DNA of 31,186 bases, taken from contig CAYULK010000002.1 of the NCBI GenBank assembly GCA_964445625.1, forward strand, positions 1-31,186. Direction: 5' to 3'. Below are positions 1,101 to 19,258 of this stretch, one piece after another. Source of the DNA: an uncultured Calditrichota bacterium (GTDB lineage: Bacteria; Calditrichota; Calditrichia; JAJRVZ01). Under the pieces are notes generated by a model. That model was not told the DNA's origin. It saw only the letters and a list, made by a program, of their open reading frames with translations, and did not search any database. The translations under genes were made by a program, and so were the position numbers. The number at the start of each line of letters is the position of its first letter. Within the stretch, counting starts at the first letter, position 1.

Positions 1101-4100
1101 CTAATTATCTTGGAAATTGAAGAGAAATCTTTTGAATGCTTTGGTGGTTATTTTTCTAGTGTTATATGTCTGGAGGTACGACAGGTATTCCTCCTCATCG
1201 GGGTATAATTCATCCGGACCATATGGATAGGAGTCCATACCGTGAAAGGGGAGTGGTTTTACCGTTTGGCCTTGAGCTGTATTGAGATCACCGTCCTTTA
1301 ACCAGCCATCATTGTATAATATAAAGTCTCTACGCCAGCCAGAAGGCAGATCAGAAATCTGTTTCGCTTCAAATTCAACGGTTATTTCATCTCCGGCATT
1401 CATGATCACGTACTTACTGTCCGACTCCAAGAGTAGTGGGAGCACATTACCATATTTGGTATACATACCGGTTAAGTCCCTCCATTTCGGTGCCGTAGTA
1501 ACGATTTGGTAGTCCGGGATATGCGGACTGTACGGTGTTTCCCGGGTTACCTTCGAAAAGCCCCGGTAATGAAGATCCGCCAACATTGGCTCAAGTTTAA
1601 AATTTCTTAATGTGCCCCCCGCCACATTGGTAGCATAAAAAATATAATCCCAATAAATCTGCATATTTGTATGTATCCGGATACGGTAATCCTCAATGAG
1701 AAATTTATTACTCAGGTCCACCACCACGGTTTTATTTTTACCTTTGGGAAAACCTAAATTTTCTATTACCGTCCTCCAGCTTCCTTGTTTATCGATTACC
1801 TGAAGTACAGGCGGCATTAAATTGACTATACTGGATTGGGCGATGTTTACGTTAATACTCGCATCAGTGGGGTAAACCCAGCCCTGTAAGAAAAGAAAAA
1901 CACTATCGACCTGAGTTAGATCCCCCAGGTCCAGAATGAGATCGTGCGGTTCCATTATTCCCTGGTACCTGGTAGGATTAAGATTGGAAATGTATTCTCC
2001 GTCGCGGTACGCAATTTTCTGTAGAAGATTATTTCCTTGACTATCCCGGGCTGATACCGGCAATATTTTATGAGCAACCGTATAAATACGAAATGTTGGG
2101 AAGGGAGGTGGTGTAAATCTCTCATTAATAAAAATATCCACATCACCGGGATGATCAACAACCATTAATTTAATTTGGTCAACAAAGGAGGTCTCCCACA
2201 ACTCGGAAGTTAACTGAAGCGAGTATCTTTCATTTTTCAGATGCAGTTTTTCCCCTGGAATTTTGAAATATTCATCAGTGGAATTGGGAAAAGCATAAGA
2301 AACTTCGCCTCCCATAATTCCAAGGGGCATACCTAAAGCGCTGGCCCATAGAACATCGGTCACAAAATCATACTCCTCTCCGTTCCAGGCGTACAACCAG
2401 GGACAGGATCCTTTCAGGATTTGGTTTTCCACAATCGTTTGATTTCTTTCGGGGTTGAACCGATTTTGGGGTACCCCATTACTCCAAACTATCCGAACCA
2501 CATCAGCATTTTCCAAATTCCCGAGGCCGAAGTGGGCGATTGGATCTTTCATTAGCCGCATCTGATACAGAGTACCGGCTTTTACTTCCACCTTAGCACC
2601 GATTCCAAAGTAATTATTTTTACTACTACCACTGCGGAGTCCGGCCAGCCGCACAACAATATAGTTATTCACATTGCCACCGTCATTGCGCAGTAGGTGG
2701 ACAGTGCCTTGTGTACCAATTAAGAAAATATCAATATCACCATCATTATCATAGTCAGTCACTTCTACCTGACTACCGGCTTCGGGAAGTTCGGGTAGTA
2801 ATATAGAGGCATCCAAATATTTTCCTTCTCCATTGTTATAAAATAGCCAAAGTCCTCTACTTTTATGGGTTCTATCTTTTGACTTGCCGGCAACTAAAAG
2901 ATCGAGAAAGCCATCATTATCTGCATCAAAAAATAAGGCATCAAGTCCGGAAATTTCTTTTATACTTTCAAATAGGCTGTCCGACCTGTCATCTCGCTCA
3001 AAAGTGCCATCACCCTGATTGCGAAGCAGAGAATGTTGACCACTGCTCAAGCTCGTTAAAAACAGATCCAAATATCCATCATTATTATAGTCGCCCACTG
3101 CCACAGCACCGGTGCCGTTATCAGTTGCTAAGCCTGCTTGTTCAGTAATATCCCGAAAATAACCCTGCCGTAAATTATCAAAATATTGATTGCTTCCGCC
3201 CTGATTTACTACAAAAAGATCGATATCCCCATCATCGTCAAAATCTCCGAACACAACATCCCGGCTATTCGAGATAACTTCCACAGCACCGATGCCGACC
3301 TCTTCTCCAATTTCAGTGAATGTTCCATCTGAATTATTTCGGTACAAGCGGTTTTGAGAACTTGTAGCGATGAATAGATCCAAATCACCTTCCAAATCCA
3401 GGTCAGCAAACAGTGCTTCCCGGCCTTTGGAGTCGGTGCGGATTCCGGTAGAGGCCGTGACATCCCGAAAGGCTCTTTCTCCGGTATTATGGTATAATCT
3501 GTTGGCCAACGTATTGGTGACGAATAAGTCGAGATAGCCGTCATTGTCATAATCGGCAAAAATAGCAGAAAGATCCCTACCGGTATGGGAGATACCGGCA
3601 TCTGTCGCAATGTCTGAGAAGACGCCGTTATCGTTGAGAAATAAAAATTGCCGGCTGGCTTGTTTCCCCGGTTCGTATCTGGAGACGAAAACATCCTGGT
3701 CTCCATCGCTATCATAATCGCCATGCGCAAGTACGATCTGCGGATAATCATCACTTAACTCCACAGCATTTCCGGATGATATGATATCCAATCCGCTGGA
3801 TGACGTTACCTCGGTGAAATTGAGGGCATCAGGAATACCGGTCCTTGCCTGGATATGCAGCGATACCGTATGACTAAAACGGAGAATGGGCTCACCGGTG
3901 ATGGCGCCGCTTATTCCCTTCAATTCAGTAATTGCTGCCTGATAGAAGGATGTCGACTTCAACAAATTGTGAAACATGCGGGTGGGAGGAAAAGCCTGTT
4001 CAGGATTTGCGTCGCGCATAAGCTCAAGACTTTTCCGAAATATTTCCAGTGAACCCTCCGGCAATTCAGGCAGGATCTGGTAGATGGTTTCCATATGCTG

Positions 4101-4679
4101 CAGCGCCTGATCCGGCTTTCCATTCCGTAATAACAACTCTGCCAGCTGCAGGCGGGCCACTACATTTGCAGGCAGGGAATTAACCACCCTGGCTAAGTAA
4201 TCTTCCGCTTTTTGTTGAGTACCAGGATCCTGTGAGTTGATGTAATATTGTGCCAACTGATATAATGTCCGCACATGGAAGGTGTGTTTTTCAATCGTAA
4301 ATTCCAAAGTGCTGATCGCCTGATCTTCTCGCTGGGTTAATTCATACACTTTTGCTAATAAGAGACGAGCACCGGGATGATCCGGTTCCAGGATTAATGC
4401 TTCCTGCAGCCATTTTTCAGCCATTCCGAGTTTGTTCATCATACGTAAATAAGTCAGTCCGAGATCAGCGTATCCCAGAGGTTCCTCCGGTGCAATTTCA
4501 ATCAATGTCCGGAATTCTTTTGCTGCCTCCGGCAGTTTATTCTCCTCAAGATAAGCCAGACCAAGATTCCGGTGAAGGATCATCTTTCCAGCGGTCTGAG
4601 GATTGAACTCTACTTTTTTTTCACACCCGTTTAATAGGATGAGCAGGCCCGAAACAAAATAAATTAATCTTTTCATCAT
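1101..4679 (-). CDS. TPR + FG-GAP/VCBS repeats + ASPIC/UnbV domain lipoprotein with a long uncharacterised C-terminal domain
   Basis: Likely start MMKRLIYFVSGLLILLNGC at 4679 (lipobox LNGC), not the ORF-track start 4772. TPR-like helices (HRNLGLAYLE, YADLGLTYL, RLLLAKVYE) are followed by repeated DYDNDGxLD motifs, an UnbV-type segment (YFGIGAKVEVKAG...AHFGLG...VRIVWSNG), then about 430 aa beginning GSCPWLYAWNG. Confidence 0.88.
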   Translation of the reverse strand: MMKRLIYFVSGLLILLNGCEKKVEFNPQTAGKMILHRNLGLAYLEENKLPEAAKEFRTLIEIAPEEPLGYADLGLTYLRMMNKLGMAEKWLQEALILEPDHPGARLLLAKVYELTQREDQAISTLEFTIEKHTFHVRTLYQLAQYYINSQDPGTQQKAEDYLARVVNSLPANVVARLQLAELLLRNGKPDQALQHMETIYQILPELPEGSLEIFRKSLELMRDANPEQAFPPTRMFHNLLKSTSFYQAAITELKGISGAITGEPILRFSHTVSLHIQARTGIPDALNFTEVTSSSGLDIISSGNAVELSDDYPQIVLAHGDYDSDGDQDVFVSRYEPGKQASRQFLFLNDNGVFSDIATDAGISHTGRDLSAIFADYDNDGYLDLFVTNTLANRLYHNTGERAFRDVTASTGIRTDSKGREALFADLDLEGDLDLFIATSSQNRLYRNNSDGTFTEIGEEVGIGAVEVISNSRDVVFGDFDDDGDIDLFVVNQGGSNQYFDNLRQGYFRDITEQAGLATDNGTGAVAVGDYNNDGYLDLFLTSLSSGQHSLLRNQGDGTFERDDRSDSLFESIKEISGLDALFFDADNDGFLDLLVAGKSKDRTHKSRGLWLFYNNGEGKYLDASILLPELPEAGSQVEVTDYDNDGDIDIFLIGTQGTVHLLRNDGGNVNNYIVVRLAGLRSGSSKNNYFGIGAKVEVKAGTLYQMRLMKDPIAHFGLGNLENADVVRIVWSNGVPQNRFNPERNQTIVENQILKGSCPWLYAWNGEEYDFVTDVLWASALGMPLGIMGGEVSYAFPNSTDEYFKIPGEKLHLKNERYSLQLTSELWETSFVDQIKLMVVDHPGDVDIFINERFTPPPFPTFRIYTVAHKILPVSARDSQGNNLLQKIAYRDGEYISNLNPTRYQGIMEPHDLILDLGDLTQVDSVFLFLQGWVYPTDASINVNIAQSSIVNLMPPVLQVIDKQGSWRTVIENLGFPKGKNKTVVVDLSNKFLIEDYRIRIHTNMQIYWDYIFYATNVAGGTLRNFKLEPMLADLHYRGFSKVTRETPYSPHIPDYQIVTTAPKWRDLTGMYTKYGNVLPLLLESDSKYVIMNAGDEITVEFEAKQISDLPSGWRRDFILYNDGWLKDGDLNTAQGQTVKPLPFHGMDSYPYGPDELYPDEEEYLSYLQTYNTRKITTKAFKRFLFNFQDN

Positions 4680-4784
4680 ACGTATCAATTGAGAGGGTTG
4701 AAAATTAATAAATCTTTCACTTTGAACATGTCTCCTAATAATTACGCTTAAAGTGATGAGATTTAATAACATAAATTATATAAA

Positions 4785-5738
4785 TCAACATGTTTTACTA
4801 CAATTACAGTGTATAGGAGACGTGAGTGCCTGATTGATGTTCATTCTATGTATACTTCGTAAGCGTTCTGTATGGCATTTGTCGCATGACGATAGTTTTT
4901 CAACGTCCCAAAGGTCAGCAAATACGCGACCAAGCTTTAACTGTATGCCATATGCAAGTACTTCTTCTAAAGATTTTAGATTTGGTGGAGAGAATAGACC
5001 AAAACTATGTAACTGATCAAGAGCCCCGTTGCCCATACGGGTCGGGATAATCACGCAACACTCTACACCGATATTGAATGCAAAATCAATGGAATGCTTG
5101 GCCCAAATGATTCCTTCGGCTTCGTTGAGGAAAGGAGGAGGCAGCAGAATGAAGGTACGAACCAAAATATCTTTTTTAAAAAGATAGTTCGTGGCCTTTT
5201 CAAAATCTTCCAATGTCATGCTTTTATTTAATTTTTTGAGTATCTGAGGATGGACCGTTTCCACTCCCATAGCTACATATAGTTTCGGTTTAAGTAGATC
5301 GAGAAAGGGTAGACAGCGCCTTTTAACAAGACGGGGGTGACTTTCGATCACCACGGATTTGAATGATCCAAGGAGGTTAGCGATCTCTGGAAAATCATTC
5401 GGTGGAATTGCCTGTGGGTCGAAAAAACTTCCACTGTTGTACAACTTGATATGTTCCACGGGAGGTATTTGATCTAATGCCCATTTGATTTGTGTGGGAA
5501 TCGCTCCATTCGGTACCGACTTATCAAGTGTATTCTTCCAAAGATCACACATCAGACAGTGAAAGGGACACTCATTATTCGTTAAAAATATGGTTGCAAC
5601 GCATTCAACTATACCTTCTTCCGTGTGTTCTTTCTCCACCAGATAGTTATAAGGTCTCAAGGGATTGACACGATTTTTTACTGGTCGCTGGTTTAGAATC
5701 CACCGATCATTTGTTTGAACCATTGTGGTGTCATTCAT
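4785..5738 (-). CDS. Radical SAM protein resembling the TIGR01210/RaSEA (archaeosine-type) family
   Basis: CxxxCxxC at C57/C61/C64 (CPFHCLMC). Downstream motifs YNSGSFFD, ESHP, MGVET, TFILLPPPFL, IPT and C-terminal CDKC...CNC recall the RaSEA pattern (TSGSFLD, ESRP, IGLET, LLKPPFL). Radical SAM call is firm; the subfamily is from motif memory. Confidence 0.8.
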   Translation of the reverse strand: MNDTTMVQTNDRWILNQRPVKNRVNPLRPYNYLVEKEHTEEGIVECVATIFLTNNECPFHCLMCDLWKNTLDKSVPNGAIPTQIKWALDQIPPVEHIKLYNSGSFFDPQAIPPNDFPEIANLLGSFKSVVIESHPRLVKRRCLPFLDLLKPKLYVAMGVETVHPQILKKLNKSMTLEDFEKATNYLFKKDILVRTFILLPPPFLNEAEGIIWAKHSIDFAFNIGVECCVIIPTRMGNGALDQLHSFGLFSPPNLKSLEEVLAYGIQLKLGRVFADLWDVEKLSSCDKCHTERLRSIHRMNINQALTSPIHCNCSKTC

Positions 5739-7059
5739 ATTGAGCGCTAAAAAACCGACGGTATTGTGTCTGTTTTGTTGGAAATCGGTTATTGAAATCT
5801 TCTTGTGTTATCGCACCATGCTGAAACCGGCGTTTTGGGAATACCGGCATTTTCAGCCCTGTAATAGCTTCCACACCTCTAGATACAATCTCACCTTTCA
5901 GTTGATACAATTTTTCGTGCTGCCATTGCGTTAAAGCGATAAAAGGTATGGTTTCAGCAATTTCAATGACGTTGGGAAGCGTGTAGGGGCTTAAGCCATC
6001 AAACCCAAACAGACTTTTCGGAGCATTAGTGCGGGTATAAGCCCGACTCAGACCCCCGGAGTAGGTGAGTGAATGTTTAATAGAATCTACACCCCAGCCT
6101 TCCTGGTAAAGCATCATATTATTAAAGACACTTCGAATTGTAAGTTCTGGATTTTCCTCAATGCTATAATCCTTTAAGTTTTCGTCTCCACCATCGCCAT
6201 CAATGAGATAGCACCATTCGGGATAGCGTTTGCGTATTCCACGGCATAGAGCTATATTCATCGATGCTGCCTGGATATCCAGTGGTTTGTAATCCTCCAC
6301 AACCCTGATGGCTTCCTGCCAGTTTACTTCATTAACGGAGACTTCAATGGGCTCTAAGAACAATGAAAGCCCAAGTTGTTCTAAAAAACGACGTGTCTGA
6401 ATTAAGTCATCACCGCCCCCCTGTACAGATAACGTAAAGGCTTTGAGTCGTGCAGGATTTAAACCAAGTTGCAACATAGCATGATAGGTTAATAAGAATA
6501 CCGAACCGCTGTCGATGCCCCCAGAGAAACAAACGCCAATGGGTCCTTCAATGGCTCTGTTCTGGAGCCATTTAACGATTTCCTGATACAATGTCTTTAT
6601 ATAAATTTTGCCGATTTCATTCTTATCCGGCTCCAGACATTTCTGATCAGGAGTAAAAAATCGATAGTAATTTGGATTTGGGTCAGGGCAACCAACGAGA
6701 GCAATTTCGGTAACATAATGGGCCGGCGCCATGCGTGTATAGGAAGGATGAAATTGATCTTCCAGCCCCTCGTTTTTCAGAAATTCAGCGATGGTATCAA
6801 TGCGTTCGGCTGCAACAAGCAAGGGCCCGTCTTCTTTTTTGGCGATGAAATAGCGCAAAGGCTGCCCAATTGAACGCGCCAGCCGCACAGACATGCCCTT
6901 CGGGGCAACTAAAGCAAATTGACCATCAATGGCCCGGACTCTATTGACGTCATCTGCGGCCACAAGTTCCCTGGCCTCCTCAACAGTCAGGTTATAGATA
7001 ATATTTTTTGAGTCATCCGTTAAATCAACTACACGTCTAATCGCTTGAGTGTTTTGCAA
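5731..7059 (-). CDS. Asparagine-synthase-like adenine nucleotide alpha-hydrolase (PP-loop) enzyme lacking the Ntn catalytic Cys
   Basis: PP-loop SGGIDSG (about aa 179-185) and IDGDGGDE (compare AsnB SGEGADE). TTG start 6 nt after GAGGG. Stop overlaps the radical SAM start (ATGAATGA). Confidence 0.82.
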   Translation of the reverse strand: MQNTQAIRRVVDLTDDSKNIIYNLTVEEARELVAADDVNRVRAIDGQFALVAPKGMSVRLARSIGQPLRYFIAKKEDGPLLVAAERIDTIAEFLKNEGLEDQFHPSYTRMAPAHYVTEIALVGCPDPNPNYYRFFTPDQKCLEPDKNEIGKIYIKTLYQEIVKWLQNRAIEGPIGVCFSGGIDSGSVFLLTYHAMLQLGLNPARLKAFTLSVQGGGDDLIQTRRFLEQLGLSLFLEPIEVSVNEVNWQEAIRVVEDYKPLDIQAASMNIALCRGIRKRYPEWCYLIDGDGGDENLKDYSIEENPELTIRSVFNNMMLYQEGWGVDSIKHSLTYSGGLSRAYTRTNAPKSLFGFDGLSPYTLPNVIEIAETIPFIALTQWQHEKLYQLKGEIVSRGVEAITGLKMPVFPKRRFQHGAITQEDFNNRFPTKQTQYRRFFSAQYE

Positions 7060-7310: not shown

Positions 7311-9416
7311 TTAATCCCGAACAGGTGCCAGGCGTTGGATGTCCTCTGCGGTGGCCGGTGTAAGACGTATCGCCTGACCACCGCCTGCTGCCAGACGCAA
7401 CGACAGTATGGTTTCGATATCAACCAGTACCTTCTTGATCTCTATGTCATAAGGATTGCTAATCCAATCTGCCATTTTTCCATCTCGATAAACCTCAGCA
7501 ACGTATTTCCTGGCAGGCTCCAGAAAGCCAAGCGGTAATTCCAAAACACGATCTTCCTCATCGGTGATACTACCGATATACCAATCTTCGCTATTTCGAT
7601 CCTGTCGGGCAATTGTAATGTAGTCGCCAATTTGAGCATGTATTACTTTGGTGTCCTGCCAGTCAGCTGGTACATCCAGGATGAATTGAAAAGCCGGTTG
7701 ATCCTCATAGTTTTCAGGCAGGTCGGCGGCCATCTGCAACGGGCTGTAAAGAACTACATATAGAGCCAGTTGTTTTGCCAGTGTTGTGTTGACCCGGTTA
7801 TTAGGGCGGGTCTCTTTAAGAATCAGGTCAAAAATTCCGGGTGTAAAATCCATGGGCCCGGCGAGCAATCGTGTAAACGGTAGAATAGTGGTATGGTCCG
7901 GTGGATTACCGCCATCCGGACCCCACGCATTGTATTCCTGACCCCTTGCTCCCTCACGAGTCATCATATTCGGATAAGTACGCCGGATACCGGTGTCCTT
8001 TATGGGTTCATGCGCATCCAGCATGATATGATATTTAGCCGCTGTCTCGACCACTTTTCTGTAATGTCGTACCATGTACTGGCCATGATGCCACTCCATT
8101 TGAATTGAATTATCATTTTCATCTATGCGTTTAATTCCCTGGCCCCAGCCGACATATCCTGTTTTAACTTTATCAATCCCTAGTTTGCGGTAATATTCGA
8201 AAGCATCCTCCATTTGTCGCTCATAGTTTATGACCGAAGCGCCTGTCTCGTGGTGACCAATAATCTGGATCCCTTTGCTTGCAGCGTAGGCGCTCAATTC
8301 TTTTATATCGAAATCTTCGTAGGGAGTCGTAAAATTGAAAAGTTCGCCATTCTGAGTCCAGTCGCCATCCCAGCCTACATTCCAGCCTTCAACAAGCACT
8401 CCCGGAAAACCATACTTAGCTGCAAAATCGATATATGCCTTGGTATTTTCAGTTGTCGCGCCGTGTTTCTTACCAGAGCCCCAGGTGTACTTGCCAATAT
8501 GCATGCCCCACCAGATGCCAATATATTTTTCCGGTTTAATCCATGAAACATCACCCAGTTTATTCGGTTCATTCAGGTTCAGGATGAGATAGGATGTGAT
8601 TAAATCACCGGCAGATTCAGCGATCTGAATCGTACGCCAGGGCGTTTGGAGTGGAGTGGAGGCTTTTACTTTGACACCATCGGACCAGGGGACAAGATCA
8701 CAAAGCAACGTGTTGTTTTTAAAACCTGCCAGGGTCATAGAGGCATAATTGGTAAGATTAGCCTCATGAATGCTTAAAAACAGACCGTCGGCAGTTTCGA
8801 TTGTCAATGGCGTATGGACTGCACGGATGGTATCGTTTGGAATTGAACTGATCGGAGATTTTTTATACAAGTACTCATAACGCTCGCGCTGGTAAGCCGG
8901 AATCCACCAGGCCTGATGGTCCCCTGTCATGGCAAATTCTGTCTCCTCATCCATGATCTGAAAGTCGTTGAGATGATTTTGTTCCGGCAACTCGTAGCGA
9001 AAACCGAGGCCATAGTCGTATACCCTGAAGACCAGGTTCATCTTGCGTGGGGTTTCGGTGGTCTCTTCGAGCTGAACTCGTAGTTCGTTATAATGGTTCC
9101 TGATTTCTTTTACCTCTCCCCAGGGTTGAAACCAGGTCTCGTCAAAGCTGCTTTTCTGAATCCCGATTTGAGTCAGGTTCTGGTTCAGGGGAGCGGCGTC
9201 TTTGAAAATAAAGCCCAGTTTAGAAGGTTTTATAATGTTCTTACCCGAACGGTTGACCTGATAGTAGGGCACCCCATCTTCAAGCGAAAGTGTGACTGTG
9301 ATCTCACCGTCAGGTGAGGAAACATAGAGACTTTCTTCTACACCTTGCTTACACTGAGTGAACAATAGCAGCAGAAGGATAAGTGTAAAAAGAGCAGGGA
9401 GTTTGTTATTATTCAT
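7311..9416 (-). CDS. susB: Glycoside hydrolase family 97 (SusB-like alpha-glucosidase/glucoamylase), probably the inverting subgroup
   Basis: GH97 motifs PWRTI, YIDFAA, HHET, VKTGYV, DAHE, REGARGQE, GPMDFTPG, YSPLQMAAD. N-terminal signal ending FTQC. Confidence 0.92.
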   Translation of the reverse strand: MNNNKLPALFTLILLLLLFTQCKQGVEESLYVSSPDGEITVTLSLEDGVPYYQVNRSGKNIIKPSKLGFIFKDAAPLNQNLTQIGIQKSSFDETWFQPWGEVKEIRNHYNELRVQLEETTETPRKMNLVFRVYDYGLGFRYELPEQNHLNDFQIMDEETEFAMTGDHQAWWIPAYQRERYEYLYKKSPISSIPNDTIRAVHTPLTIETADGLFLSIHEANLTNYASMTLAGFKNNTLLCDLVPWSDGVKVKASTPLQTPWRTIQIAESAGDLITSYLILNLNEPNKLGDVSWIKPEKYIGIWWGMHIGKYTWGSGKKHGATTENTKAYIDFAAKYGFPGVLVEGWNVGWDGDWTQNGELFNFTTPYEDFDIKELSAYAASKGIQIIGHHETGASVINYERQMEDAFEYYRKLGIDKVKTGYVGWGQGIKRIDENDNSIQMEWHHGQYMVRHYRKVVETAAKYHIMLDAHEPIKDTGIRRTYPNMMTREGARGQEYNAWGPDGGNPPDHTTILPFTRLLAGPMDFTPGIFDLILKETRPNNRVNTTLAKQLALYVVLYSPLQMAADLPENYEDQPAFQFILDVPADWQDTKVIHAQIGDYITIARQDRNSEDWYIGSITDEEDRVLELPLGFLEPARKYVAEVYRDGKMADWISNPYDIEIKKVLVDIETILSLRLAAGGGQAIRLTPATAEDIQRLAPVRD

Positions 9417-9455
9417 GATTTTCCTCTATATGGAAGATGATAAATTGGAATTTTC

Positions 9456-9485
9456 AATATAGACAACCTATGATTTTAAAGTCAA
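9456..9485 (-). promoter_or_regulatory. Putative sigma70-type promoter for the GH97 gene
   Basis: Minus strand TTGACT (9485-9480), 18-nt spacer, TATATT (9461-9456), about 40 nt upstream of the GH97 ATG. Confidence 0.5.
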
Positions 9486-9544
9486 GATGAAGGATACACT
9501 CATCCTGGTTGCACATAATAATTAGCGAATTGTTTGATTGTGGA

Positions 9545-12500
9545 TTATCTGGTCGTAATCTCATACACCTGATTCCAGTCATCATTCTTTGCAAAAATAA
9601 TTACCTCTTGTTTATTTCTATATCTAAGAGAAATCATATCCCGAACCTGGCCTGTCAAAGATAATCCACTATTCTGAATCGATACGGAGGTAAAGCTACC
9701 TGTACTATTTCCTATTAACAGAGTGCCGTAACTTGCATCGTATCTCCCGAGCTGGACATCGAGGCCATAGAAATTTCCAGCCAGGAGTAGATCCTTTGCA
9801 CCGTCAGCATTGAAATCTCTGGCCAAAATGGCATAAACAGGCGAAAACTGCGCCTCTGTGGGCAACGGTTGAATGCGGAATATTCCTTCCTCATTTCCAT
9901 AAAACACCGTTGTAGCGAATGTACCGGCTGTTTTAACAACTGCCTCATTTAGCTGTTCTGCGGAAAAAATATCTGTAATCTGCTTTCCGGCATAAGCAGC
10001 ATGAGTGGGAAATTTTTTCTTTAAATAGGGTAATTGCTTCATCAAATCCGGTCTTAATGGTAGGGGATAACTTTTCCCCAGTTTGTAATAGCATAGAATT
10101 TGTTCTATTAATCCATTTTTATCGAAATCGGATATGTAAATAGTCACGGGCTCGGATTGGGAGACCCGGATTTTAGAATTCTTGCCTAAATTACCGGCTA
10201 TCAGATCCACATACCCGTCCCCATTCAGATCATCCACTGTAACACAGTTCCACCAGCCATTGGTTTTCTCCAATCCAACTTTACCGGTAACATTGATCAG
10301 ACTATCTCCCGTATTTTTGAACAAGCTAACAGGCATCCATTCACCGACTACTACCAAATCCAGGTCTTTATCATTATCATAATCAAACCATTCTGCATCG
10401 GTTACCATACCCACATTTTTCAATTCTGGAGCATATTCCTCAGTGACTATCGAAAAATGTCCCTTACCATCATTCTCTAGCAGATAGCTAGTGGGTGAAA
10501 GTCCATATTTCCAGGGGATACTGCGGCTACCCACGAATAAATCCAAATCGCCATCACTATCAAAATCCCCCGGCACCACACATGAACCGCTGGAGCGAAT
10601 TCTCGGCAGGGCGTCGACAGACTGTGTAAAATCTCCTCTTCCGCTGTTGATATACAATCGGTCAATAAGGGCAGGCGCTGTCTTGGAATACTCATTGCCC
10701 CCGCTTACTACGTAAATGTCCAGGTCGCTATCTCCGTCCGCATCAAAAAAGGCGATTCCGACATCTTCGGAAATCTTTGCCTTTTGGAGCAGCAGTTCAT
10801 TGGTGTTTTTAAACTCTCCGGATACGGTCTGTACCAGTAATTTTCCCGCAGATCCTTTTGCGCCGCCGATGTATAAATCTTCCCATCCATCACCGTTTAT
10901 ATCACCTTTGGCTATTTTAGGTCCCTCGGTGGATAATTGATGAGGGATAAACAGTTCTCTTTGAAAATCGATAAATTCATTTTCAACATGTCGGTATTGT
11001 AGTGGTAACTCCTGGGAAATATCCCGAAAGATGGGATCTATATTTATGGGCAGATTCTGGGTATATAGTCGAGCATCTCTTTGATACAAGGTAAAAACCT
11101 GATCAACAGCCACATTCGTTTTGATATCTCTGGTTCCATCCGGCCAATCGACGATCAATGTATCTACCAGATTATTCTCTCCTAATCCGAAAGTGAGGAC
11201 ATAGTCAACAGAGGCCTGAAATCCCCTCATTGGTACCTGCTCCAGGACGAAGGTTTGCCGGTTGGCACATTGGAGTGTCACCTTCGATCCAATGGCAAAA
11301 GCGTTCATCCCTTCTCCAACCAGTTTCACCCTCAAATAATGATTGTCGGTCAGGGAATCGGCTTCGTTTCGATAGACAAAAGCCGGTTGATTGACATTGT
11401 TAATGACCAGGTCATTATCACCATCACCGTCCAGATCACCGTAAGCAACGCCATTCGAGAAGCTGGGAATATCCAATCCCCATTCCTTTGCCAGGTTAGT
11501 GAAAGTTAAATCTCCGTTATTACGAAAAGCATAATTTGAGAGTTTCGTGGAGGGAATTTTTCGTATGAGTTCGGGAAAATTGATGCGGTCGCCTTGTAAG
11601 ATTTTACGGATATTTTCTTTCTTCATAAGGTAGAAAAGATAGTCTTGGTCCGTGACATCCCGAAAAATTCCGGTTGAAACAAAGATATCCTTTAATCCGT
11701 CATTGTTTAAGTCTACAATCAACGCCCCCCAGCTCCAATCGGTCTCCGCCACACCGGCCAGCAGTCCAATTTCACTGAATAAAATTTGATGTTCTGGAGT
11801 GAAACCCCTGTTTAACTGTAGTACGTTCTGTGAAAATTGATGGTAATAGCCCCATTTGATTTTCTTTTTATTGAACTCAAAAGATTCAAAATTGAAGGTG
11901 GTTTTCAATCTGTAGTCATCTTCCGGTAGCATATCGGTTGCGAAAATATCCAGCAAGCCATCATTATTAAGATCGGCAATATCTCCACCCATAGAAGAGA
12001 GACTAATGTGTTGCATCATCTCTTCCAGTTTTTCTGTAAATGTGCCGTCATGATTATTGATATAAAGATAGTCCCGTTCGAAAAAATCATTGGCCACATA
12101 TATATCCGCCCACCGGTCATTGTTGATATCGCAAACCGATACTCCCAATCCAAACGTAATGACACTTCTAAAGATGCCTGCTTTTTCGCTAACATCCACG
12201 AATCTGCCATTATCATTTCGATATAACCAGTCTCCACCATTTTGATCCGGTTCATTGCGCAAATTTTTTGATAAATCAAAGGAGCTCATAGCCCGGAAAG
12301 CGTTATTAAGCACATAAAGATCTAAATCACCATCTTGGTCATAATCGAAGAAAGCAGCATGGGTGGAAAATCCCGGATTATCGATTCCGTATTCAGCCGC
12401 AGTTTCTATAAAGGTAGGTATACCATCTTCATTATTTCCCTGATTGAGAAAAAGCTCATTGGCTCGGTTGTCATCGTTGATGTTTCCAGAGTTGCAGACA

Positions 12501-12907
12501 TAAATATCCAGCTGTTGATCGCCGTTGATATCAACCAAACATACCCCAGTGGACCAGGTATGGCTTCCGGCAACTCCTGCTTGCTCCGTCACCTCCCTAA
12601 ACTGGAAATCACCTTGATTCAGGAATAATTTATTGGATTTCTGATTAGCGACCAGGTACACGTCAGGCAGGCCATCATTGTTGACATCTCCAATAGCCAC
12701 GCCACCGCCGTTATAGTAATTGCGATACTTAAAAACGTTAAAATCCGTTTCATCAACCAATGTATTTTCAAATTCCAGATCTGTATAATCACTGGGGAGC
12801 AAAGTAAACATACTATCAACGAGAATGTCAGGTGGTTTCTTATCACAGGAAGAGAGTAGAATAAGAATTATTCCACAAAGAAGGCAGATTATTTTCACTT
12901 TGTACAT
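9545..12907 (-). CDS. FG-GAP/VCBS-repeat + ASPIC/UnbV (CRTAC1-like) lipoprotein
   Basis: Lipobox LSSC at C21, many GDxNxDGxxD Ca-binding repeats, a central UnbV segment (IGSKVTL...RGFQAS...LTFGLG...VDWPDG), then a second set of FG-GAP repeats. Confidence 0.9.
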   Translation of the reverse strand: MYKVKIICLLCGIILILLSSCDKKPPDILVDSMFTLLPSDYTDLEFENTLVDETDFNVFKYRNYYNGGGVAIGDVNNDGLPDVYLVANQKSNKLFLNQGDFQFREVTEQAGVAGSHTWSTGVCLVDINGDQQLDIYVCNSGNINDDNRANELFLNQGNNEDGIPTFIETAAEYGIDNPGFSTHAAFFDYDQDGDLDLYVLNNAFRAMSSFDLSKNLRNEPDQNGGDWLYRNDNGRFVDVSEKAGIFRSVITFGLGVSVCDINNDRWADIYVANDFFERDYLYINNHDGTFTEKLEEMMQHISLSSMGGDIADLNNDGLLDIFATDMLPEDDYRLKTTFNFESFEFNKKKIKWGYYHQFSQNVLQLNRGFTPEHQILFSEIGLLAGVAETDWSWGALIVDLNNDGLKDIFVSTGIFRDVTDQDYLFYLMKKENIRKILQGDRINFPELIRKIPSTKLSNYAFRNNGDLTFTNLAKEWGLDIPSFSNGVAYGDLDGDGDNDLVINNVNQPAFVYRNEADSLTDNHYLRVKLVGEGMNAFAIGSKVTLQCANRQTFVLEQVPMRGFQASVDYVLTFGLGENNLVDTLIVDWPDGTRDIKTNVAVDQVFTLYQRDARLYTQNLPINIDPIFRDISQELPLQYRHVENEFIDFQRELFIPHQLSTEGPKIAKGDINGDGWEDLYIGGAKGSAGKLLVQTVSGEFKNTNELLLQKAKISEDVGIAFFDADGDSDLDIYVVSGGNEYSKTAPALIDRLYINSGRGDFTQSVDALPRIRSSGSCVVPGDFDSDGDLDLFVGSRSIPWKYGLSPTSYLLENDGKGHFSIVTEEYAPELKNVGMVTDAEWFDYDNDKDLDLVVVGEWMPVSLFKNTGDSLINVTGKVGLEKTNGWWNCVTVDDLNGDGYVDLIAGNLGKNSKIRVSQSEPVTIYISDFDKNGLIEQILCYYKLGKSYPLPLRPDLMKQLPYLKKKFPTHAAYAGKQITDIFSAEQLNEAVVKTAGTFATTVFYGNEEGIFRIQPLPTEAQFSPVYAILARDFNADGAKDLLLAGNFYGLDVQLGRYDASYGTLLIGNSTGSFTSVSIQNSGLSLTGQVRDMISLRYRNKQEVIIFAKNDDWNQVYEITTR

Positions 12908-13403: not shown

Positions 13404-14933
13404 TTAATATCCCGGATTTTGTGTCAGGTTGGGATTTGCATCCAACTGACTCTGCGGGATGGGAAAGATTCGTCTATACGGGCCATCACTTGCGGGTTTT
13501 AATGTCCATGCATCGAGAAAGTGCCCGGTTCTAACCAGATCTTGACGACGGAAACCCTCCCATAACATCTCAAAACCACGCTCATCAAGAATGCGATCCC
13601 GCAATTCTTTTTTAGTACTGAAATCAGCAAGAGAAAGTGGCACAAAAGGGTCAAAGCAACGTACCCTTACCGAGTCAATCAGGTCGAGACTTTCCTGGTT
13701 AGGCCCGTTGATTTCGTTCAAGGCTTCCGCTTTGCTGAGCAGGACATGCGGATAGCGAAAAATGGCGAAGTCATTCCCGGCATTTCCGCCACTCATATCA
13801 GGATCCACCTCCCACTTAAGGATGCGCACGCCATTTGATTCATTGGCGCCGAACAGGGGAGATTCTACAGTAAAATTCAATGTATCACCCTGGCGATCGA
13901 ATGCCTGGTCGCCTGCATTTGGCCCGCCTAAGACAAATTGAGGACCTACCAGCATATGGATAAAACGTACATCGCTGGTGTCGTAACTATTATAAAAGTC
14001 GGCCAGGACGGAAAATCCATTCCAAGGAGTCTGAGGCAACTGGTTGTAATGTAAGGTAGCCATGAAGCGTAAAAATCCCGAACCATCTAATGCCTTATTG
14101 GCAGTAACCAGAATGTTCTCTGGGTTATCAGGTCCTTCATTGGCCAGTTTGAAGTTATCCGCATATTTGGGCAACAGTTCATACAGGCCTGAATTAATTA
14201 CTGCGTTACAGGCCAATACACATTCATTCCACTTTGGTGTTCCGGTATAAACCTCGGCATTCAGATAAACTGTGGCTAGAAAAGTATTGGCAGCCCCTAA
14301 AGTTAACCGGCCGTAACTTTCCCGTCCAAATGTGTCTTTAATATCCGGCAATGCAGCTTCAACTTCTGCTACGATAAAATCGAATACTTCCTGCCTGGTA
14401 TTGGGAGTTGGAGGATTGTTCGGATCCGGGGATGCGGTAGTGACTATCGGCACCCCGCCGTATAGATCTATCAGCAACCAATAAAAATAGGCCCTAAGCA
14501 CTCTTACTTCCGCAATAGCGACGGGAATGAGGGCCGAGCCGCTGGTCGAGGTCTGTAAGTTTTCCAGGGTTGCATTGGCTCGTGCTACGCCAGTGAAATA
14601 ATCTTTCCATCCTCCATCTACGGCAGAGTTGGTAGCGTCCCAGTTATGTTCCTGCAATTGCCGCCACTTTCCTCCGTCATCCCAATCTCCGCCTCGCGTA
14701 GGTACAAATATCTCATCCGAGGATACTTCCTGCATGTGTATTCCTTCACCCCAGGACAATGTGCGGAGACTGCTATAGACCGGGACCACTGCCGCGATTA
14801 ACTCTTGCTCCGTTTTATAAAAATTATCCGGTGTTACCGAACTAAATGGCGACTCTGAGAGATCGGTACAGTTTGAAAAGATCATTAAAATTAAAAGGAA
14901 CGCCGGCAGAAAAAGAAATCTATGATTATTCAT
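13404..14933 (-). CDS. susD: RagB/SusD family nutrient-binding outer-membrane lipoprotein
   Basis: Lipobox FSNC; SusD hallmarks (Y.GVARAN, AEVRVLRAYFYWLLIDLYGGVP, FRYPHVLLSKAEA, ERGFEMLWEGFRRQDLVR, C-terminal NPNLTQNPGY); directly downstream of susC. Confidence 0.95.
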   Translation of the reverse strand: MNNHRFLFLPAFLLILMIFSNCTDLSESPFSSVTPDNFYKTEQELIAAVVPVYSSLRTLSWGEGIHMQEVSSDEIFVPTRGGDWDDGGKWRQLQEHNWDATNSAVDGGWKDYFTGVARANATLENLQTSTSGSALIPVAIAEVRVLRAYFYWLLIDLYGGVPIVTTASPDPNNPPTPNTRQEVFDFIVAEVEAALPDIKDTFGRESYGRLTLGAANTFLATVYLNAEVYTGTPKWNECVLACNAVINSGLYELLPKYADNFKLANEGPDNPENILVTANKALDGSGFLRFMATLHYNQLPQTPWNGFSVLADFYNSYDTSDVRFIHMLVGPQFVLGGPNAGDQAFDRQGDTLNFTVESPLFGANESNGVRILKWEVDPDMSGGNAGNDFAIFRYPHVLLSKAEALNEINGPNQESLDLIDSVRVRCFDPFVPLSLADFSTKKELRDRILDERGFEMLWEGFRRQDLVRTGHFLDAWTLKPASDGPYRRIFPIPQSQLDANPNLTQNPGY

Positions 14934-14960: not shown

Positions 14961-17900
14961 CTATTTAAAGCCAATGTTTAAACCGATAGAAATGGTCCGG
15001 GCTCGGGGATAATTAGTATAGTCTACTCCGAGAGTAGCCACCGGGCCTCCGTTCTGCGCAATGGTGTTGACTTCCGGATCCAAGCCCTGGTAATCGGTCC
15101 AGATAAACAGATTATCGGCAGCCACGTAAACACGCAATTTTCTAAAAAAGGTAGTTTCAAAGGTGTACCCTATAGTTATGTTCTGCAAGCGGATATATGA
15201 TCCGTCTTCTATGAATCTGTCGGTATATTTAACCTGAGCCTGGGGGTCCATTCCATTTGCGACATCATCCAGTGCTCCGTGAAAGAGATTAATACCATTA
15301 AAAACATTGGAAGGCCGCTGGTATTCCAGACGGGTATTATTCAGGAGTTCAAATCCATGTACCCCCTGAAAGAAGAACAGAAAGTCAAAACCCTTCCAAG
15401 CCGTTATACTCGAGAAGCCCCAGGTAAAATCCGGCCGGGCGTTTCCTAAAACAAACCTGCCGTCATTAAGAGGTCCACCGGTGGTTGTTATTATTTCATT
15501 TCCATCGTCATCAAATCCCAGGAAACGAGGACCGAAGAATGTACCCAATGGCTGGCCGGGTAGGATAATTTGTGCCTGTACACCGGATAGTCCGGCGCCA
15601 CTAACCCTTCCGGTGGTAATATATTCCCGGCCTCCTAAATTGAGCACTTTATTTGAATTTGTGGCAAAATTAAATGTGGATCGCCAGAAAAGATCTCCCG
15701 AAGAGAGATTTATGGTATTCAGCGATATCTCAAGACCCTTATTCTCAACTTCTCCTGCATTTGCCAGCACGGTCGCTACCACTGCCGGTTGCGGGACATC
15801 AAAATTAATTAACAAATCCTTGGTTTTTTTGCTATAGACATCAATAGAACCTGAGATTCTGTTTTCCAGGAAACTGAAGTCTAATCCCAGGTTTATCTGG
15901 CTGGTTTCCTCCCATTTCAGATCGGGATTGGCCAACTGGGTCGCTGATACACCGGTTACTACCTTGTCTCCGATAACAGCATTGGCTCCCGGACCAAGGA
16001 TAACCAATGAATTATAATTACCAATATCCTCGTTTCCGGTGATGCCATAACTGAGTCTTAATTTTAAGTCATTCAAGATTTTAACATCTTTTAAAAATGA
16101 CTCTGACGAGAGACGCCATCCTACCGCAGCGGAAGGGAAGGTACCCCATTTATTCCCTTCTCCAAAGCGGGAAGATCCTTCATAGCGGAGGGCCAGATTG
16201 AACAGGTACTTATTATCAAGGCTATAAATGCCGCGCCCAAGAAAAGAAATCAAGCGATTATCTGCCCTGTAGGACCACGGTGAAACTGTAAAATCAGCTC
16301 CGCCTCCGAGGTTATTGGTTGACCAGGCGTCTGTGACAAAGTTTTGCGCAGTTGTCCCAAACCCCGAACTTTCGAATTCCTGGTAAGTATATCCTGCCAG
16401 GACTTCCAAGTCCTGATTACCACCGAGATTCGGTTGATACTTACCTGTTGCCTCAAAAAGTACATTTTTTGTGTCTGTACTTACGACATCGGCTCTTCCG
16501 CCAAAGGTCGCCGCATATGGTATACTATTTGGTTGATAAATGGACCGGGAAGCGTCGCTCCGGTCAAATCCAAAATTTATCCTTCCGGTTAATTCCGGAA
16601 TGAAGTCATATTCCACATTGAAATTGGCAAAAATCTGCATATTCTCGGATTGATCTTCGATAAGCTCAACCATGGCCACCGGGTTGCGGATATCGGGGCT
16701 GGCATAAGCATAAAAGGATCCATCGCTGTTCTTTACAGGGAGGGTAGGATTATGCTTTAAAACGTTGGTGAATAGTCCGCCCCGGAAACCCCCGATTTGT
16801 CGATACGGTGTGTTATTACGTGTGATGTAACTGGGATTTAAGCGCAAGCCCAATCGTAGTGTATTATCGTACATTTTATGCATAATGTTGAAACGGGCGG
16901 AAACTCTTTGTCGCGCGGAATTGAGTATAATACCCTGTTCATCAAGGTAGTTCAGTGAAACCAGGTATGTGGTAGTCGCGCTGCCGGAACTGTAAGAAAG
17001 AGTATGGCTCTGCGAATAGGCTGTTCTGGCAATTTCATCCTGCCAGTCCGTGTTGGCTGTTCCCATTTCGGGGGTTGCGCCTACCTGTGCCGCATAATCT
17101 CTGTATTCCTGGGCGCTTAATAAGTCATATTTACCATACTGACTTGAAGTGCTGGCAAAACCTGAGTAATTCAGGGCGGAGCCACCGGGTTGTCCACTCT
17201 TGGTTGTAATCAGGATCACGCCGTTTCCACCCCGGGCGCCATAAGTAGCAGCTGAAGAAGCATCCTTTAAAATATCAATAGATTCGATATCGTTGGGATC
17301 CAAATTACTGAGCGGGTTATCTCGTAGACCACCAGCAGGGTTGTCCTCGCCGGTTCCACCGCTAAGTCCCGTTGGATCAAACGTGGGAGTGGCTGAAACA
17401 TTTGCAACCGGTACACCGTCAATTACATACATCGGCTCGTTCGAAGCCGAAACAGATGTACCGCCCCTTATACGAATCATGGGCGCAAAGCCCAGATCTC
17501 CATTGCCCGTAACAATCTTTACACCGGCTATCCGGGACTGTGCCAGTTGCATAGGATTGGTAATGGCACCCCTGTTGAAATCTTGAGGACTCAAGGTGCC
17601 TATGGCATTGGTAACATCTTTCCGTTGCTGGGTGCCATACCCAATGACCACGATAGCTTCCGCAGAAAAGGCCTGAGGAATCAAACGAACATTAATCTCC
17701 TTACGGTCACCGACTGTTTCTTCCACATCTGTAAAACCCACGTACATAAAAACTAGTGTGTCCTGAGGAGAAACATCTTCCAGGAGATATACACCATCTA
17801 AATCTGTAGATGCTCCCTGCTGCGTATGCTTCACGATAACATTTGCTCCTGGTAGGGGGCTCCCATCTTCTGCGGAAATGATTACCCCTGTAACGCTAAT

Positions 17901-17972
17901 TCCCTGGGCAACCACCAGCCCCGCGAAAATTAAGCTTACCACCAGGCTAAACAGCAAATATTTTGCTTTCAT
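14961..17972 (-). CDS. susC: SusC/RagA family TonB-dependent receptor
   Basis: Signal peptide, N-terminal GxxLPGANV domain, VVIGYG, plug motifs (IRIRG, PMYVIDGVP, DIESIDILKDASSAATYGARGGNGVILITTK), NPDLKWE, C-terminal YPRARTISIGLNIGF; GGGAGG Shine-Dalgarno. Confidence 0.96.
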   Translation of the reverse strand: MKAKYLLFSLVVSLIFAGLVVAQGISVTGVIISAEDGSPLPGANVIVKHTQQGASTDLDGVYLLEDVSPQDTLVFMYVGFTDVEETVGDRKEINVRLIPQAFSAEAIVVIGYGTQQRKDVTNAIGTLSPQDFNRGAITNPMQLAQSRIAGVKIVTGNGDLGFAPMIRIRGGTSVSASNEPMYVIDGVPVANVSATPTFDPTGLSGGTGEDNPAGGLRDNPLSNLDPNDIESIDILKDASSAATYGARGGNGVILITTKSGQPGGSALNYSGFASTSSQYGKYDLLSAQEYRDYAAQVGATPEMGTANTDWQDEIARTAYSQSHTLSYSSGSATTTYLVSLNYLDEQGIILNSARQRVSARFNIMHKMYDNTLRLGLRLNPSYITRNNTPYRQIGGFRGGLFTNVLKHNPTLPVKNSDGSFYAYASPDIRNPVAMVELIEDQSENMQIFANFNVEYDFIPELTGRINFGFDRSDASRSIYQPNSIPYAATFGGRADVVSTDTKNVLFEATGKYQPNLGGNQDLEVLAGYTYQEFESSGFGTTAQNFVTDAWSTNNLGGGADFTVSPWSYRADNRLISFLGRGIYSLDNKYLFNLALRYEGSSRFGEGNKWGTFPSAAVGWRLSSESFLKDVKILNDLKLRLSYGITGNEDIGNYNSLVILGPGANAVIGDKVVTGVSATQLANPDLKWEETSQINLGLDFSFLENRISGSIDVYSKKTKDLLINFDVPQPAVVATVLANAGEVENKGLEISLNTINLSSGDLFWRSTFNFATNSNKVLNLGGREYITTGRVSGAGLSGVQAQIILPGQPLGTFFGPRFLGFDDDGNEIITTTGGPLNDGRFVLGNARPDFTWGFSSITAWKGFDFLFFFQGVHGFELLNNTRLEYQRPSNVFNGINLFHGALDDVANGMDPQAQVKYTDRFIEDGSYIRLQNITIGYTFETTFFRKLRVYVAADNLFIWTDYQGLDPEVNTIAQNGGPVATLGVDYTNYPRARTISIGLNIGFK

Positions 17973-18691: not shown

Positions 18692-19258
18692 ATGAGATCA
18701 TTCAAACTTAAACAACGGATTATTAGGAGAATAGGGATTATATCTATTCTCGGTCTTTTTCTGATATCATGCGGCTCGTCGGTTCGTGTCCAATTTGATT
18801 ATCTTGAGGGTCATGATTTTAAACCCTATAAAACCTTCGATTTTTTGGTGGCACCCAATGATCTTCAAATGCATGATAAATCAATCCGGCGGATTAAAAA
18901 TGCAGTCATAAACGAACTGGAATTAAACGAATTTGAGATGAAATTTACTCAGCCTGATTTCTTAATTGCTATCCAGAAGAGTGTTGATTCAAAAATCAAC
19001 GTGACTAATTGGGGATATACATACGCACCATATAGCAATTATTACGGCGGATATGAATACTGGGGAACGCCAAGTATGAGTGTCTATAAATATGAGGAGG
19101 GAACCCTGGTTATTGACATTATCGATCCAAAGACGATGGATCTGATTTGGAGAGGGGTGGCGCAAAGAGCACTCCCACCCCGGCTTGATTCCGAACGGAT
19201 TCAGGAAATTATTAATGAAGCCGTACGCAGAGTACTTTATTACTGGCCACCGGATTAA
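18692..19258 (+). CDS. DUF4136-like lipoprotein
   Basis: Likely start ATG 18692 with lipobox LISC; motifs YKTFDF, PDFLI, YEEGTLVIDIID...LIWRG typical of DUF4136. Stop overlaps the convergent kinase stop (TTAA, 19255-19258). Confidence 0.82.
   Translation: MRSFKLKQRIIRRIGIISILGLFLISCGSSVRVQFDYLEGHDFKPYKTFDFLVAPNDLQMHDKSIRRIKNAVINELELNEFEMKFTQPDFLIAIQKSVDSKINVTNWGYTYAPYSNYYGGYEYWGTPSMSVYKYEEGTLVIDIIDPKTMDLIWRGVAQRALPPRLDSERIQEIINEAVRRVLYYWPPD

Follow-up and report, generated by a model that had tools for sequence, protein, structure and literature searches.

A conserved gene pair for an AsnB-like ligase and a RaSEA-like radical SAM enzyme accompanies an exported propeller lipoprotein in bacteria and may form a two-step cytoplasmic module

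To our knowledge, ArcS-RaSEA is the only known system that uses the RaSEA-type subfamily of radical SAM (S-adenosylmethionine) enzymes. RaSEA works in an obligate complex together with ArcS, which attaches lysine, makes no use of NH4+, Asn or Gln and is active only within the complex; the lysine adduct is then converted by RaSEA (PMC11298593). For asparagine synthetase-like (AS-like) enzymes a Glu-Tyr dyad was reported to be needed for carboxylate adenylation, and the example of PesC indicates that such enzymes can proceed from an amide to a nitrile (PMC13060819). A third described system, the clusters of hydrazine synthase (HZS) homologues, contains two ABC substrate-binding proteins in addition to an FG-GAP protein of the CRTAC1 family, with ligase and radical SAM genes unmentioned (Hagglund et al. 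2025, PMC12758564). The present analysis concerns a gene pair encoding an AsnB-like ligase and a RaSEA-like radical SAM enzyme in a 31,186-nt stretch of contig CAYULK010000002.1 (hereafter the window) from an uncultured Calditrichota bacterium, represented by a 68%-complete metagenome-assembled genome (MAG) from hydrothermal-vent metagenomes.

Across hundreds of bacterial species the two genes remain paired, and homologues of either protein number in the thousands. For the radical SAM protein at least 566 matches were confirmed in species-representative genomes (one per species), and its family comprised 321 clusters (50% clustering, E <= 1e-30). Gene context was compared in the 80 loci that matched the radical SAM protein best, which came from several phyla and in which gene ends were assigned by tblastn. 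The ligase gene was located directly upstream of the radical SAM gene in 79 of these 80 loci, which rules out chance adjacency and bears out the co-conservation on which the original prediction depended. The two genes overlapped in 68 of the 79 loci and by exactly 8 nt in 55 of them. The 8-nt overlap of a PP-loop enzyme gene with a radical SAM gene claimed for the window was confirmed from its sequence, since plus-strand bases 5731-5738 read tcattcat, corresponding to ATGAATGA on the coding strand, so that the ATG of the radical SAM gene falls within the last 8 nt of the ligase gene. The overlap ATGAATGA points to translational coupling of the ligase and radical SAM genes. The ligase was 62-79% identical across the aligned loci, which belong to Bacteroidota, to Planctomycetota and to MAGs that carry the labels Calditrichota and Deferribacteres, and Maribacter luteus was identified as a cultured carrier of the pair (locus L016). 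A literature search revealed no paper describing the pair, its product or its pathway, and no function assigned to it, in agreement with the possible unknown pathway proposed earlier. Searches of the PDB by sequence, with single sequences as well as profiles, yielded no usable match. The matches in the ESM Atlas were limited to unnamed 'asparagine synthase-related' and 'radical SAM' clusters, and neither protein matched any of the PADLOC defence-system models.

The cluster motif of the radical SAM protein was found at C57-x3-C61-x2-C64, with all three cysteines invariant in the alignment of homologues. C227 was likewise invariant, and C228 as well as C285, C288 and C311 near the C-terminus were conserved in at least 90% of the sequences. 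TIGR01210 (RaSEA) was the best NCBIfam match (110.8 bits, E 7.4e-32), aligned over residues 34-315. Searching the AFDB Swiss-Prot set with the structural model, which had a predicted local distance difference test (pLDDT) score of 88.5, gave MJ0550, Q5JE80 and Q8THK1 as the top three matches, with template modelling (TM) scores of 0.81, 0.73 and 0.82, respectively, at 21-23% identity; besides MJ0550, they comprise RaSEA from T. kodakarensis and from M. acetivorans. The next matches after the RaSEA family were Elp3, YhcC and YtqA (TM ~0.53), and the PDB yielded only Elp3 and folds of the pyruvate formate-lyase (PFL)-activase type at TM ~0.5. The protein thus combines the CX3CX2C motif with the RaSEA-type full-length fold, and RaSEA is its nearest characterised relative, so the RaSEA-like character proposed for it held in both the family and the fold searches. 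A position outside the TIGR01210 clade had been named beforehand as a finding that would count against the original prediction, and the protein does fall outside this equivalog, its 110.8 bits lying below the cut-off of 212.15 bits and its identity to the RaSEA-family entries being 21-23%.

The ligase was recognized as an AsnB-like PP-loop enzyme, as had been proposed, by its Pfam Asn_synthase match, the FSGGIDSG loop and its fold matches. Its N-terminus, read from the TTG start, aligned with the MNxQY starts of homologues. The Pfam match was limited to residues 172-312 (E 3.5e-11), no Pfam model matched the C-terminal half (residues 313-442), and the score against TIGR01536 (glutamine-hydrolysing asparagine synthase) was 33.1 bits, below the cut-off of 267.1. 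The PP-loop FSGGIDSG occupies residues 178-185. In an alignment of 21 ligase homologues this loop and the stretch DGDGGDENLKDY were invariant or nearly so, and Glu293 and Tyr298 were invariant. In a profile alignment with the canonical AsnB of Maribacter luteus, FSGGIDSG was placed on VLLSGGLDSS and DGDGGDENLKDY on SGEGADELFGGY; Glu293 and Tyr298 would therefore represent the Glu-Tyr dyad of AS-like enzymes. Both hallmarks of the synthetase-domain superfamily, the PP-loop SGGxDS and the acidic Glu...Tyr motif, are accordingly found in the ligase. The nucleophile Cys2 and the oxyanion motif NGEIYN were both absent from the ligase, the N-terminus of which reads (M)QNTQAIRR, whereas the canonical AsnB used for comparison starts with MCGIV and contains ANGEIYNH. 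No glutamine hydrolysis is therefore expected, and the ligase is classified from these motifs as a predicted glutaminase-less member of the AsnB family.

The AlphaFold model of the ligase (pLDDT 78, predicted TM score 0.83) showed the two-domain AsnB fold and was about equally close to human ASNS, beta-lactam synthetase, carbapenam synthetase, E. coli AsnB and TsnB9 (E ~1e-11, TM 0.5-0.6). The best-conserved stretch, with many invariant residues, comprised residues 290-344 (DGDGGDEN ... SGGLSRGY), which could form a lid or an interface with the partner protein.

Occurrence of the pair was found to depend on a giant lipoprotein of ~1200 aa with TPR, FG-GAP and ASPIC domains, which was present in all 24 pair-bearing genomes of three lineage samples. 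In the phylum of the window (86 genomes) the pair was present in 2 genomes and the giant in at least 8, including both pair-bearing ones; among 151 Flavobacteriaceae genomes the pair was found in 3 and the giant in the same 3; and in a Planctomycetota order (121 genomes) 19 genomes had the pair and 22 the giant, all 19 included. Related genomes are not independent of each other, and these counts are given without a statistical test. In nine more pair-bearing genomes, reached through the related loci, two checks detected the giant in 4/4 and 4/5. A full-length giant orthologue was located within the flanks in 43 of the 80 related loci, and in several genomes the distance from the ligase gene to the giant gene downstream of it was no more than a few kb. 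One genome assigned to the window's genus lacked the pair at 93% completeness. These observations show the pair to be an accessory module with a one-way dependence on the system of the giant. A pair so tied to the giant and so patchily distributed points away from a general RNA modification, and the patchy distribution itself argues against a housekeeping role on tRNA.

The longest giant open reading frame (ORF) of the window likely extends too far upstream (window 4473-4772, minus strand), as the lipoprotein signal MMKRLIYFVSGLLILLNGC starts at Met32. The true start is probably Met32, at position 4679, which would make the lipobox Cys residue 50. With this start the gap after the radical SAM stop codon would be ~105 nt, versus 12 nt for the longest ORF. 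The Maribacter orthologue of the giant has a lipobox similar to that of the window protein. Comparison of 38 pair-associated giants with 4 pair-less ones revealed that the latter retained 284 of the 289 positions conserved in at least 95% of the former; the changes at the five remaining positions were mild (R to K or D to E, for example), and none of the differences involved a Trp, Cys or acidic residue that would set the two groups apart.

Several loci with the giant and without the pair were also inspected. In one such genome (G080) the operon ran ...Peripla_BP_6 - Peripla_BP_6 - giant - FG-GAP(556), followed by an Amidohydro_2 gene in the place of the pair. This gene (L102, G080:C113, 13570-14676; 368 aa) may be a coincidence or a functional replacement of the pair. 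Locus L100 (G041:C8:429000-448900), from the same genus, contained an HZS-like/Peripla_BP_6/giant cluster without the pair, in which the giant was split into overlapping ORFs at 8071-9597 and 9347-11653 (768 and 508 aa); the split could be due to a frameshift, a pseudogene or a sequencing error. A sodium-solute symporter gene was present in three pair-less giant loci (L098 820-2727, L099 12247-13833 and L103 4587-6383) and in 0/80 pair-bearing loci within 10 kb. Its neighbours were GH4 and glucosamine-6-phosphate-isomerase-like genes in L103 and a DUF5110 (GH31-type) gene in L098. The idea that the symporter is an importer replacing the pair was rejected, because the GH4/GH31-like neighbours make these symporters look like sugar transporters.

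The conserved context of the pair was determined by clustering 972 ORFs of at least 80 aa from the related loci. In Bacteroidota the usual operon had the order (RidA-family) - Peripla_BP_6 - DAHP synthase - Peripla_BP_6 - giant (~1190 aa) - FG-GAP/ASPIC (~555 aa) - ligase - radical SAM, and its DAHP synthase scored 432 bits, above the family cut-off. A variant operon was arranged as ligase - radical SAM - FG-GAP - HZS-alpha-like - HZS-beta-gamma-like haem propeller - Reg_prop - RidA - Peripla_BP_6 - DAHP synthase. Apart from the pair, the core of this variant is the HZS homologue cluster described by Hagglund et al. 2025. In Planctomycetota and some other genomes the order was ligase - radical SAM - FAD enzyme (~500 aa); the best family matches of the FAD enzyme, a monooxygenase or halogenase-like protein, were QhpG (80 bits, cut-off 240), the halogenase CmlS and LodB/GoxB, all of them below cut-off. 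In the canonical operons the ligase gene begins ~30 nt after the FG-GAP gene and overlaps the radical SAM gene, and the space beside the pair is too small for a precursor peptide gene. No small conserved ORF cluster that could represent the precursor of a peptide made by ribosomes and modified after translation (RiPP) was detected beside the pair among the 972 ORFs of at least 80 aa.

Some loci showed individual arrangements. In L095 (G067:C36, 11780-14068) the ligase-radical SAM-FAD trio was located directly downstream of a gene for a PQQ-dependent quinohaemoprotein dehydrogenase; this genome, which alone in the phylum sample shares the pair with that of the window, encodes its giant on a different contig. 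A gene for a DUF1016/YhcG PD-(D/E)XK nuclease, which looks like a mobile insertion, was found between the FG-GAP and ligase genes of L006 (7409-8404). A protein of 896 aa (P0392; L096 and L097, 8001-10691) combined a RaSEA-like radical SAM domain, a hydrophobic helix (~345-362), six FG-GAP repeats and UnbV_ASPIC. P0392 was identical in two sequencing runs and had no ligase gene nearby, and no second example was found. As a Rosetta stone for the link between the pair and the propeller proteins it was given little weight, being unique, only 32% identical and without a nearby ligase gene.

In the window itself, the genes listed in Table 1 form a co-directional minus-strand row in the order SusC, SusD, FG-GAP/UnbV_ASPIC, GH97, ligase, radical SAM, giant and truncated FG-GAP gene.

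Table 1. Genes and features around the ligase-radical SAM pair in the window (positions in nt from the first base; domain assignments from Pfam unless stated otherwise).
Feature	Position	Strand	Remarks
SusC, with SusD the outer-membrane pair heading the gene row	14961-17972	minus	TonB-dependent receptor/Plug
SusD	13404-14933	minus	SusD_RagB
FG-GAP/UnbV_ASPIC propeller protein, 1120 aa, downstream of SusC/SusD	9545..12907	minus	FG-GAP_3 (9 repeats) + UnbV_ASPIC
GH97 glycoside hydrolase	7311..9416	minus	GH97 N-terminal, catalytic and C-terminal domains
AsnB-like, predicted glutaminase-less adenylating amide synthetase	5731..7059	minus	442 aa, TTG start; Asn_synthase
8-nt start/stop overlap ATGAATGA	5731..5738	minus	read directly from the sequence
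RaSEA-like radical SAM enzyme	4785..5738	minus	317 aa, ATG start; CX3CX2C, TIGR01210 best match
Giant TPR + FG-GAP propeller + UnbV_ASPIC lipoprotein, 1223-aa ORF	1101..4772	minus	TPR, FG-GAP_3, UnbV_ASPIC
FG-GAP repeat protein, N-terminal part only, gene leaves contig end	3..1016	minus	FG-GAP_3

The closest loci, L006 and L007, show the same order, ligase - radical SAM - giant with SusC/SusD/FG-GAP genes nearby, and in both the SusC-SusD-FG-GAP set follows the pair. The partial FG-GAP protein at the contig end was 42-52% identical to the ~1100-aa FG-GAP/ASPIC type found beside SusC/SusD in related loci. GH97 near the pair was seen in only one of the 80 related loci (L083), and is a lineage-specific neighbour of the pair and no conserved partner. 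Further along the same strand, a 902-aa ORF (19255-21963) encodes a protein with ROK, PAS, Hpt and HATPase_c domains (Pfam). Scans for promoters and terminators gave no more sites than shuffled sequence. Among sequencing runs the sequence was present in DNA runs only, from hydrothermal-vent and marine-sediment metagenomes, and no RNA data carrying it were found.

The reading to which we lean, although tentatively, is that the pair constitutes a cytoplasmic two-step module, in which glutamine-independent amide formation is followed by a RaSEA-like radical step, and that it serves the exported propeller system. The two proteins would probably act as one cytoplasmic complex. In the first step the AsnB-like enzyme, judging by its retained motifs, would adenylate a carboxylate and form an amide or amidine bond. 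Because the adenylation motifs were kept and the glutaminase lost, ATP-dependent formation of a C-N bond with a nitrogen source other than glutamine is suggested; in place of glutamine-derived ammonia the nitrogen might be supplied by free ammonia or, as the more appealing option, by an amine or amino acid. In the second step, suggested solely by analogy to RaSEA, the 5'-deoxyadenosyl radical of the partner might cleave or rearrange the adduct. Such chemistry, in which an amine is attached and then removed by a radical, is by this analogy attractive for the pair. The product would most likely be a small molecule (a cofactor, ligand or tailored metabolite) for the system of the exported TPR/FG-GAP/ASPIC lipoprotein. 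A small molecule is favoured because many operons contain DAHP synthase, RidA-family and orphan binding proteins, because other phyla add a flavoprotein, and because a precursor peptide gene would not fit beside the pair; the DAHP synthase, RidA, Peripla_BP_6 and FAD neighbours fit a small, possibly aromatic, product. A more specific version, which we regard as doubtful, holds that the pair makes a primary amide or amidine without glutamine or ammonia: an amino-acid amine such as lysine would be ligated and its carbon skeleton removed radically, yielding a new small cofactor or ligand for the widespread exported CRTAC1-like propeller systems, those in HZS-like haem clusters included. Of the original prediction, the pairing, the AsnB-family ligase and the RaSEA-like character of the radical SAM protein stood, whereas membership of TIGR01210 did not.

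Several observations weigh against this reading. RaSEA, Elp3 and YtqA/MnmL, to which the radical SAM protein is most closely related, all act on tRNA, which leaves a nucleoside substrate conceivable. Residues 290-344 are the only long region of the ligase model with pLDDT <50, and the acceptor pocket could not be read because of it. At least six genomes from the phylum of the window, of which one is 100% complete, and three from the Planctomycetota sample encode the giant and have no pair; a product of the pair cannot be essential to the giant. Finally, DAHP synthase was found in 32 and RidA in ~10 of the 80 loci, and neither is encoded in the window.

A serious rival, in our judgement rather unlikely, is that the pair matures a protein, acting before export, in the cytoplasm, on a residue of the giant or of an FG-GAP/ASPIC protein encoded nearby. 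Amidation, radical cross-linking, formation of an isopeptide or lactam, or a step in the making of a protein-derived cofactor would be conceivable modifications. The strict one-way co-occurrence of the pair with the giant and their frequent adjacency would be expected in such a case; pair-less giants, however, keep all but five of the 289 conserved positions, with mild differences only, and there are complete genomes with the giant but without the pair. The chemistry has precedents, as AS-like enzymes amidate, cyclise or nitrilate peptides (PMC13060819). The FAD partner matched best to QhpG and also to LodB/GoxB, flavoproteins that mature protein-derived quinone cofactors, and MauG-like dihaem proteins occur in the extended cluster, but the same FAD enzyme also matched a halogenase and every one of its matches was below cut-off. 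The one natural fusion of a radical SAM domain through a transmembrane helix to FG-GAP/ASPIC (P0392) is suggestive of a protein substrate, yet it is unique and its halves would sit on opposite sides of the membrane.

The remaining readings are lesser rivals. That the ligase closes a ring intramolecularly and the radical SAM enzyme tailors the product, giving a lactam or beta-lactam-type secondary metabolite, is improbable, even though beta-lactam and carbapenam synthetases fit the ligase model as well as asparagine synthetase does (E ~1e-11) and likewise have no working glutaminase. In beta-lactam synthetase a Tyr occupies the position of the SGEG Glu, while the position of the ligase family aligned to this canonical Glu is Asp/Glu, as in asparagine synthetases; moreover, no other antibiotic-type genes were conserved around the pair, and 60-79% identity across phyla is unusual for secondary metabolism. 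A catabolic module is very improbable: here the cytoplasmic pair would process a compound captured or released by the exported propeller and SusC/SusD proteins. The location of the window pair within a SusC/SusD/GH97 gene row and the GH4, GH31-like and GH97 genes with a sodium-solute symporter in pair-less giant loci of the window's phylum speak for it, but neither glycosidase nor SusC/SusD genes are conserved partners, many loci have the anabolic DAHP synthase instead, and ATP-dependent ligation with radical SAM chemistry is costly and unusual for catabolism. We consider least probable a modification of RNA or a nucleoside as a bacterial analogue of archaeosine synthesis. RaSEA, Elp3, YhcC and YtqA/MnmL act on tRNA or are suspected to do so, and the very high sequence conservation of the pair would suit such a function. 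It is opposed by the patchy occurrence (2/86, 3/151 and 19/121 genomes, with absence from the 93%-complete genome of the same genus), by the location of the pair in operons with exported proteins and the dependence of its presence on the lipoprotein, and by the radical SAM score below the TIGR01210 cut-off; the ligase does not resemble ArcS, and the window's genome yielded no TGT domain, an absence of little weight at 68% completeness. Archaeosine synthesis itself was rejected on distribution, partner and score.

AsnB-like and radical SAM families are both known for unusual C-N chemistry. If the analogy to RaSEA is true, borrowing an amine and cutting it off by a radical would be a general strategy that extends beyond one archaeal tRNA modification. 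The pair could also give a genetic and biochemical way into the giant lipoprotein family and the neighbouring hydrazine-synthase-like haem clusters.

Among the described systems, the HZS homologue clusters share gene neighbourhood with the pair, which abuts FG-GAP, HZS-alpha-like, HZS-beta-gamma-like and Peripla_BP_6 genes in the Bacteroidota loci L042, L058, L072 and L079. Many pair loci, however, are without HZS homologues, and no HZS-like gene was found in the window or in its 68%-complete genome. The AsnB family (E. coli AsnB, human ASNS; PF00733, TIGR01536) has in common with the ligase the two-domain fold, the PP-loop and the acidic Glu...Tyr motif, whereas the ligase lacks Cys2 and NGEIYN, scores 33 versus 267 bits and is 442 versus ~555 aa long. 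Glutaminase-inactive AsnB homologues (beta-lactam synthetase, carbapenam synthetase and TsnB9, and the AS-like TsrC, AsnO and PesC) resemble it in using the fold for ATP-dependent C-N bonds on non-aspartate substrates; the likeness is at the level of fold only, no sequence-level match of the ligase to these proteins having been found, and it differs from them in that no conserved precursor peptide, non-ribosomal peptide synthetase (NRPS) or beta-lactam genes were located near the pair.

ArcS-RaSEA of Euryarchaeota resembles the pair in three respects. RaSEA is both the best family match and the best full-length fold match of the window's radical SAM protein, the partner enzyme forms a C-N bond without glutamine or ammonia-tunnel chemistry, as proposed for the ligase, and the complex documented there (PMC11298593) has its counterpart in the tight gene coupling that suggests one here. 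The systems differ in that the pair is bacterial, patchy and linked to exported propeller proteins rather than to preQ0 synthesis or tRNA genes, and in that the window protein reaches 110.8 versus 212.15 bits, with 21-23% identity. No tRNA or queuosine-pathway genes were conserved near the pair in the related loci, and in place of the ArcS partner and the ArcTGT-supplied preQ0-tRNA that characterize RaSEA, an AsnB-like partner was found in 79/80 loci. ArcS is TGT/PUA-like, whereas the window partner is predicted to be an ATP-dependent AsnB-fold ligase; the pair thus joins a RaSEA-like radical SAM enzyme to a predicted ATP-dependent partner other than ArcS.

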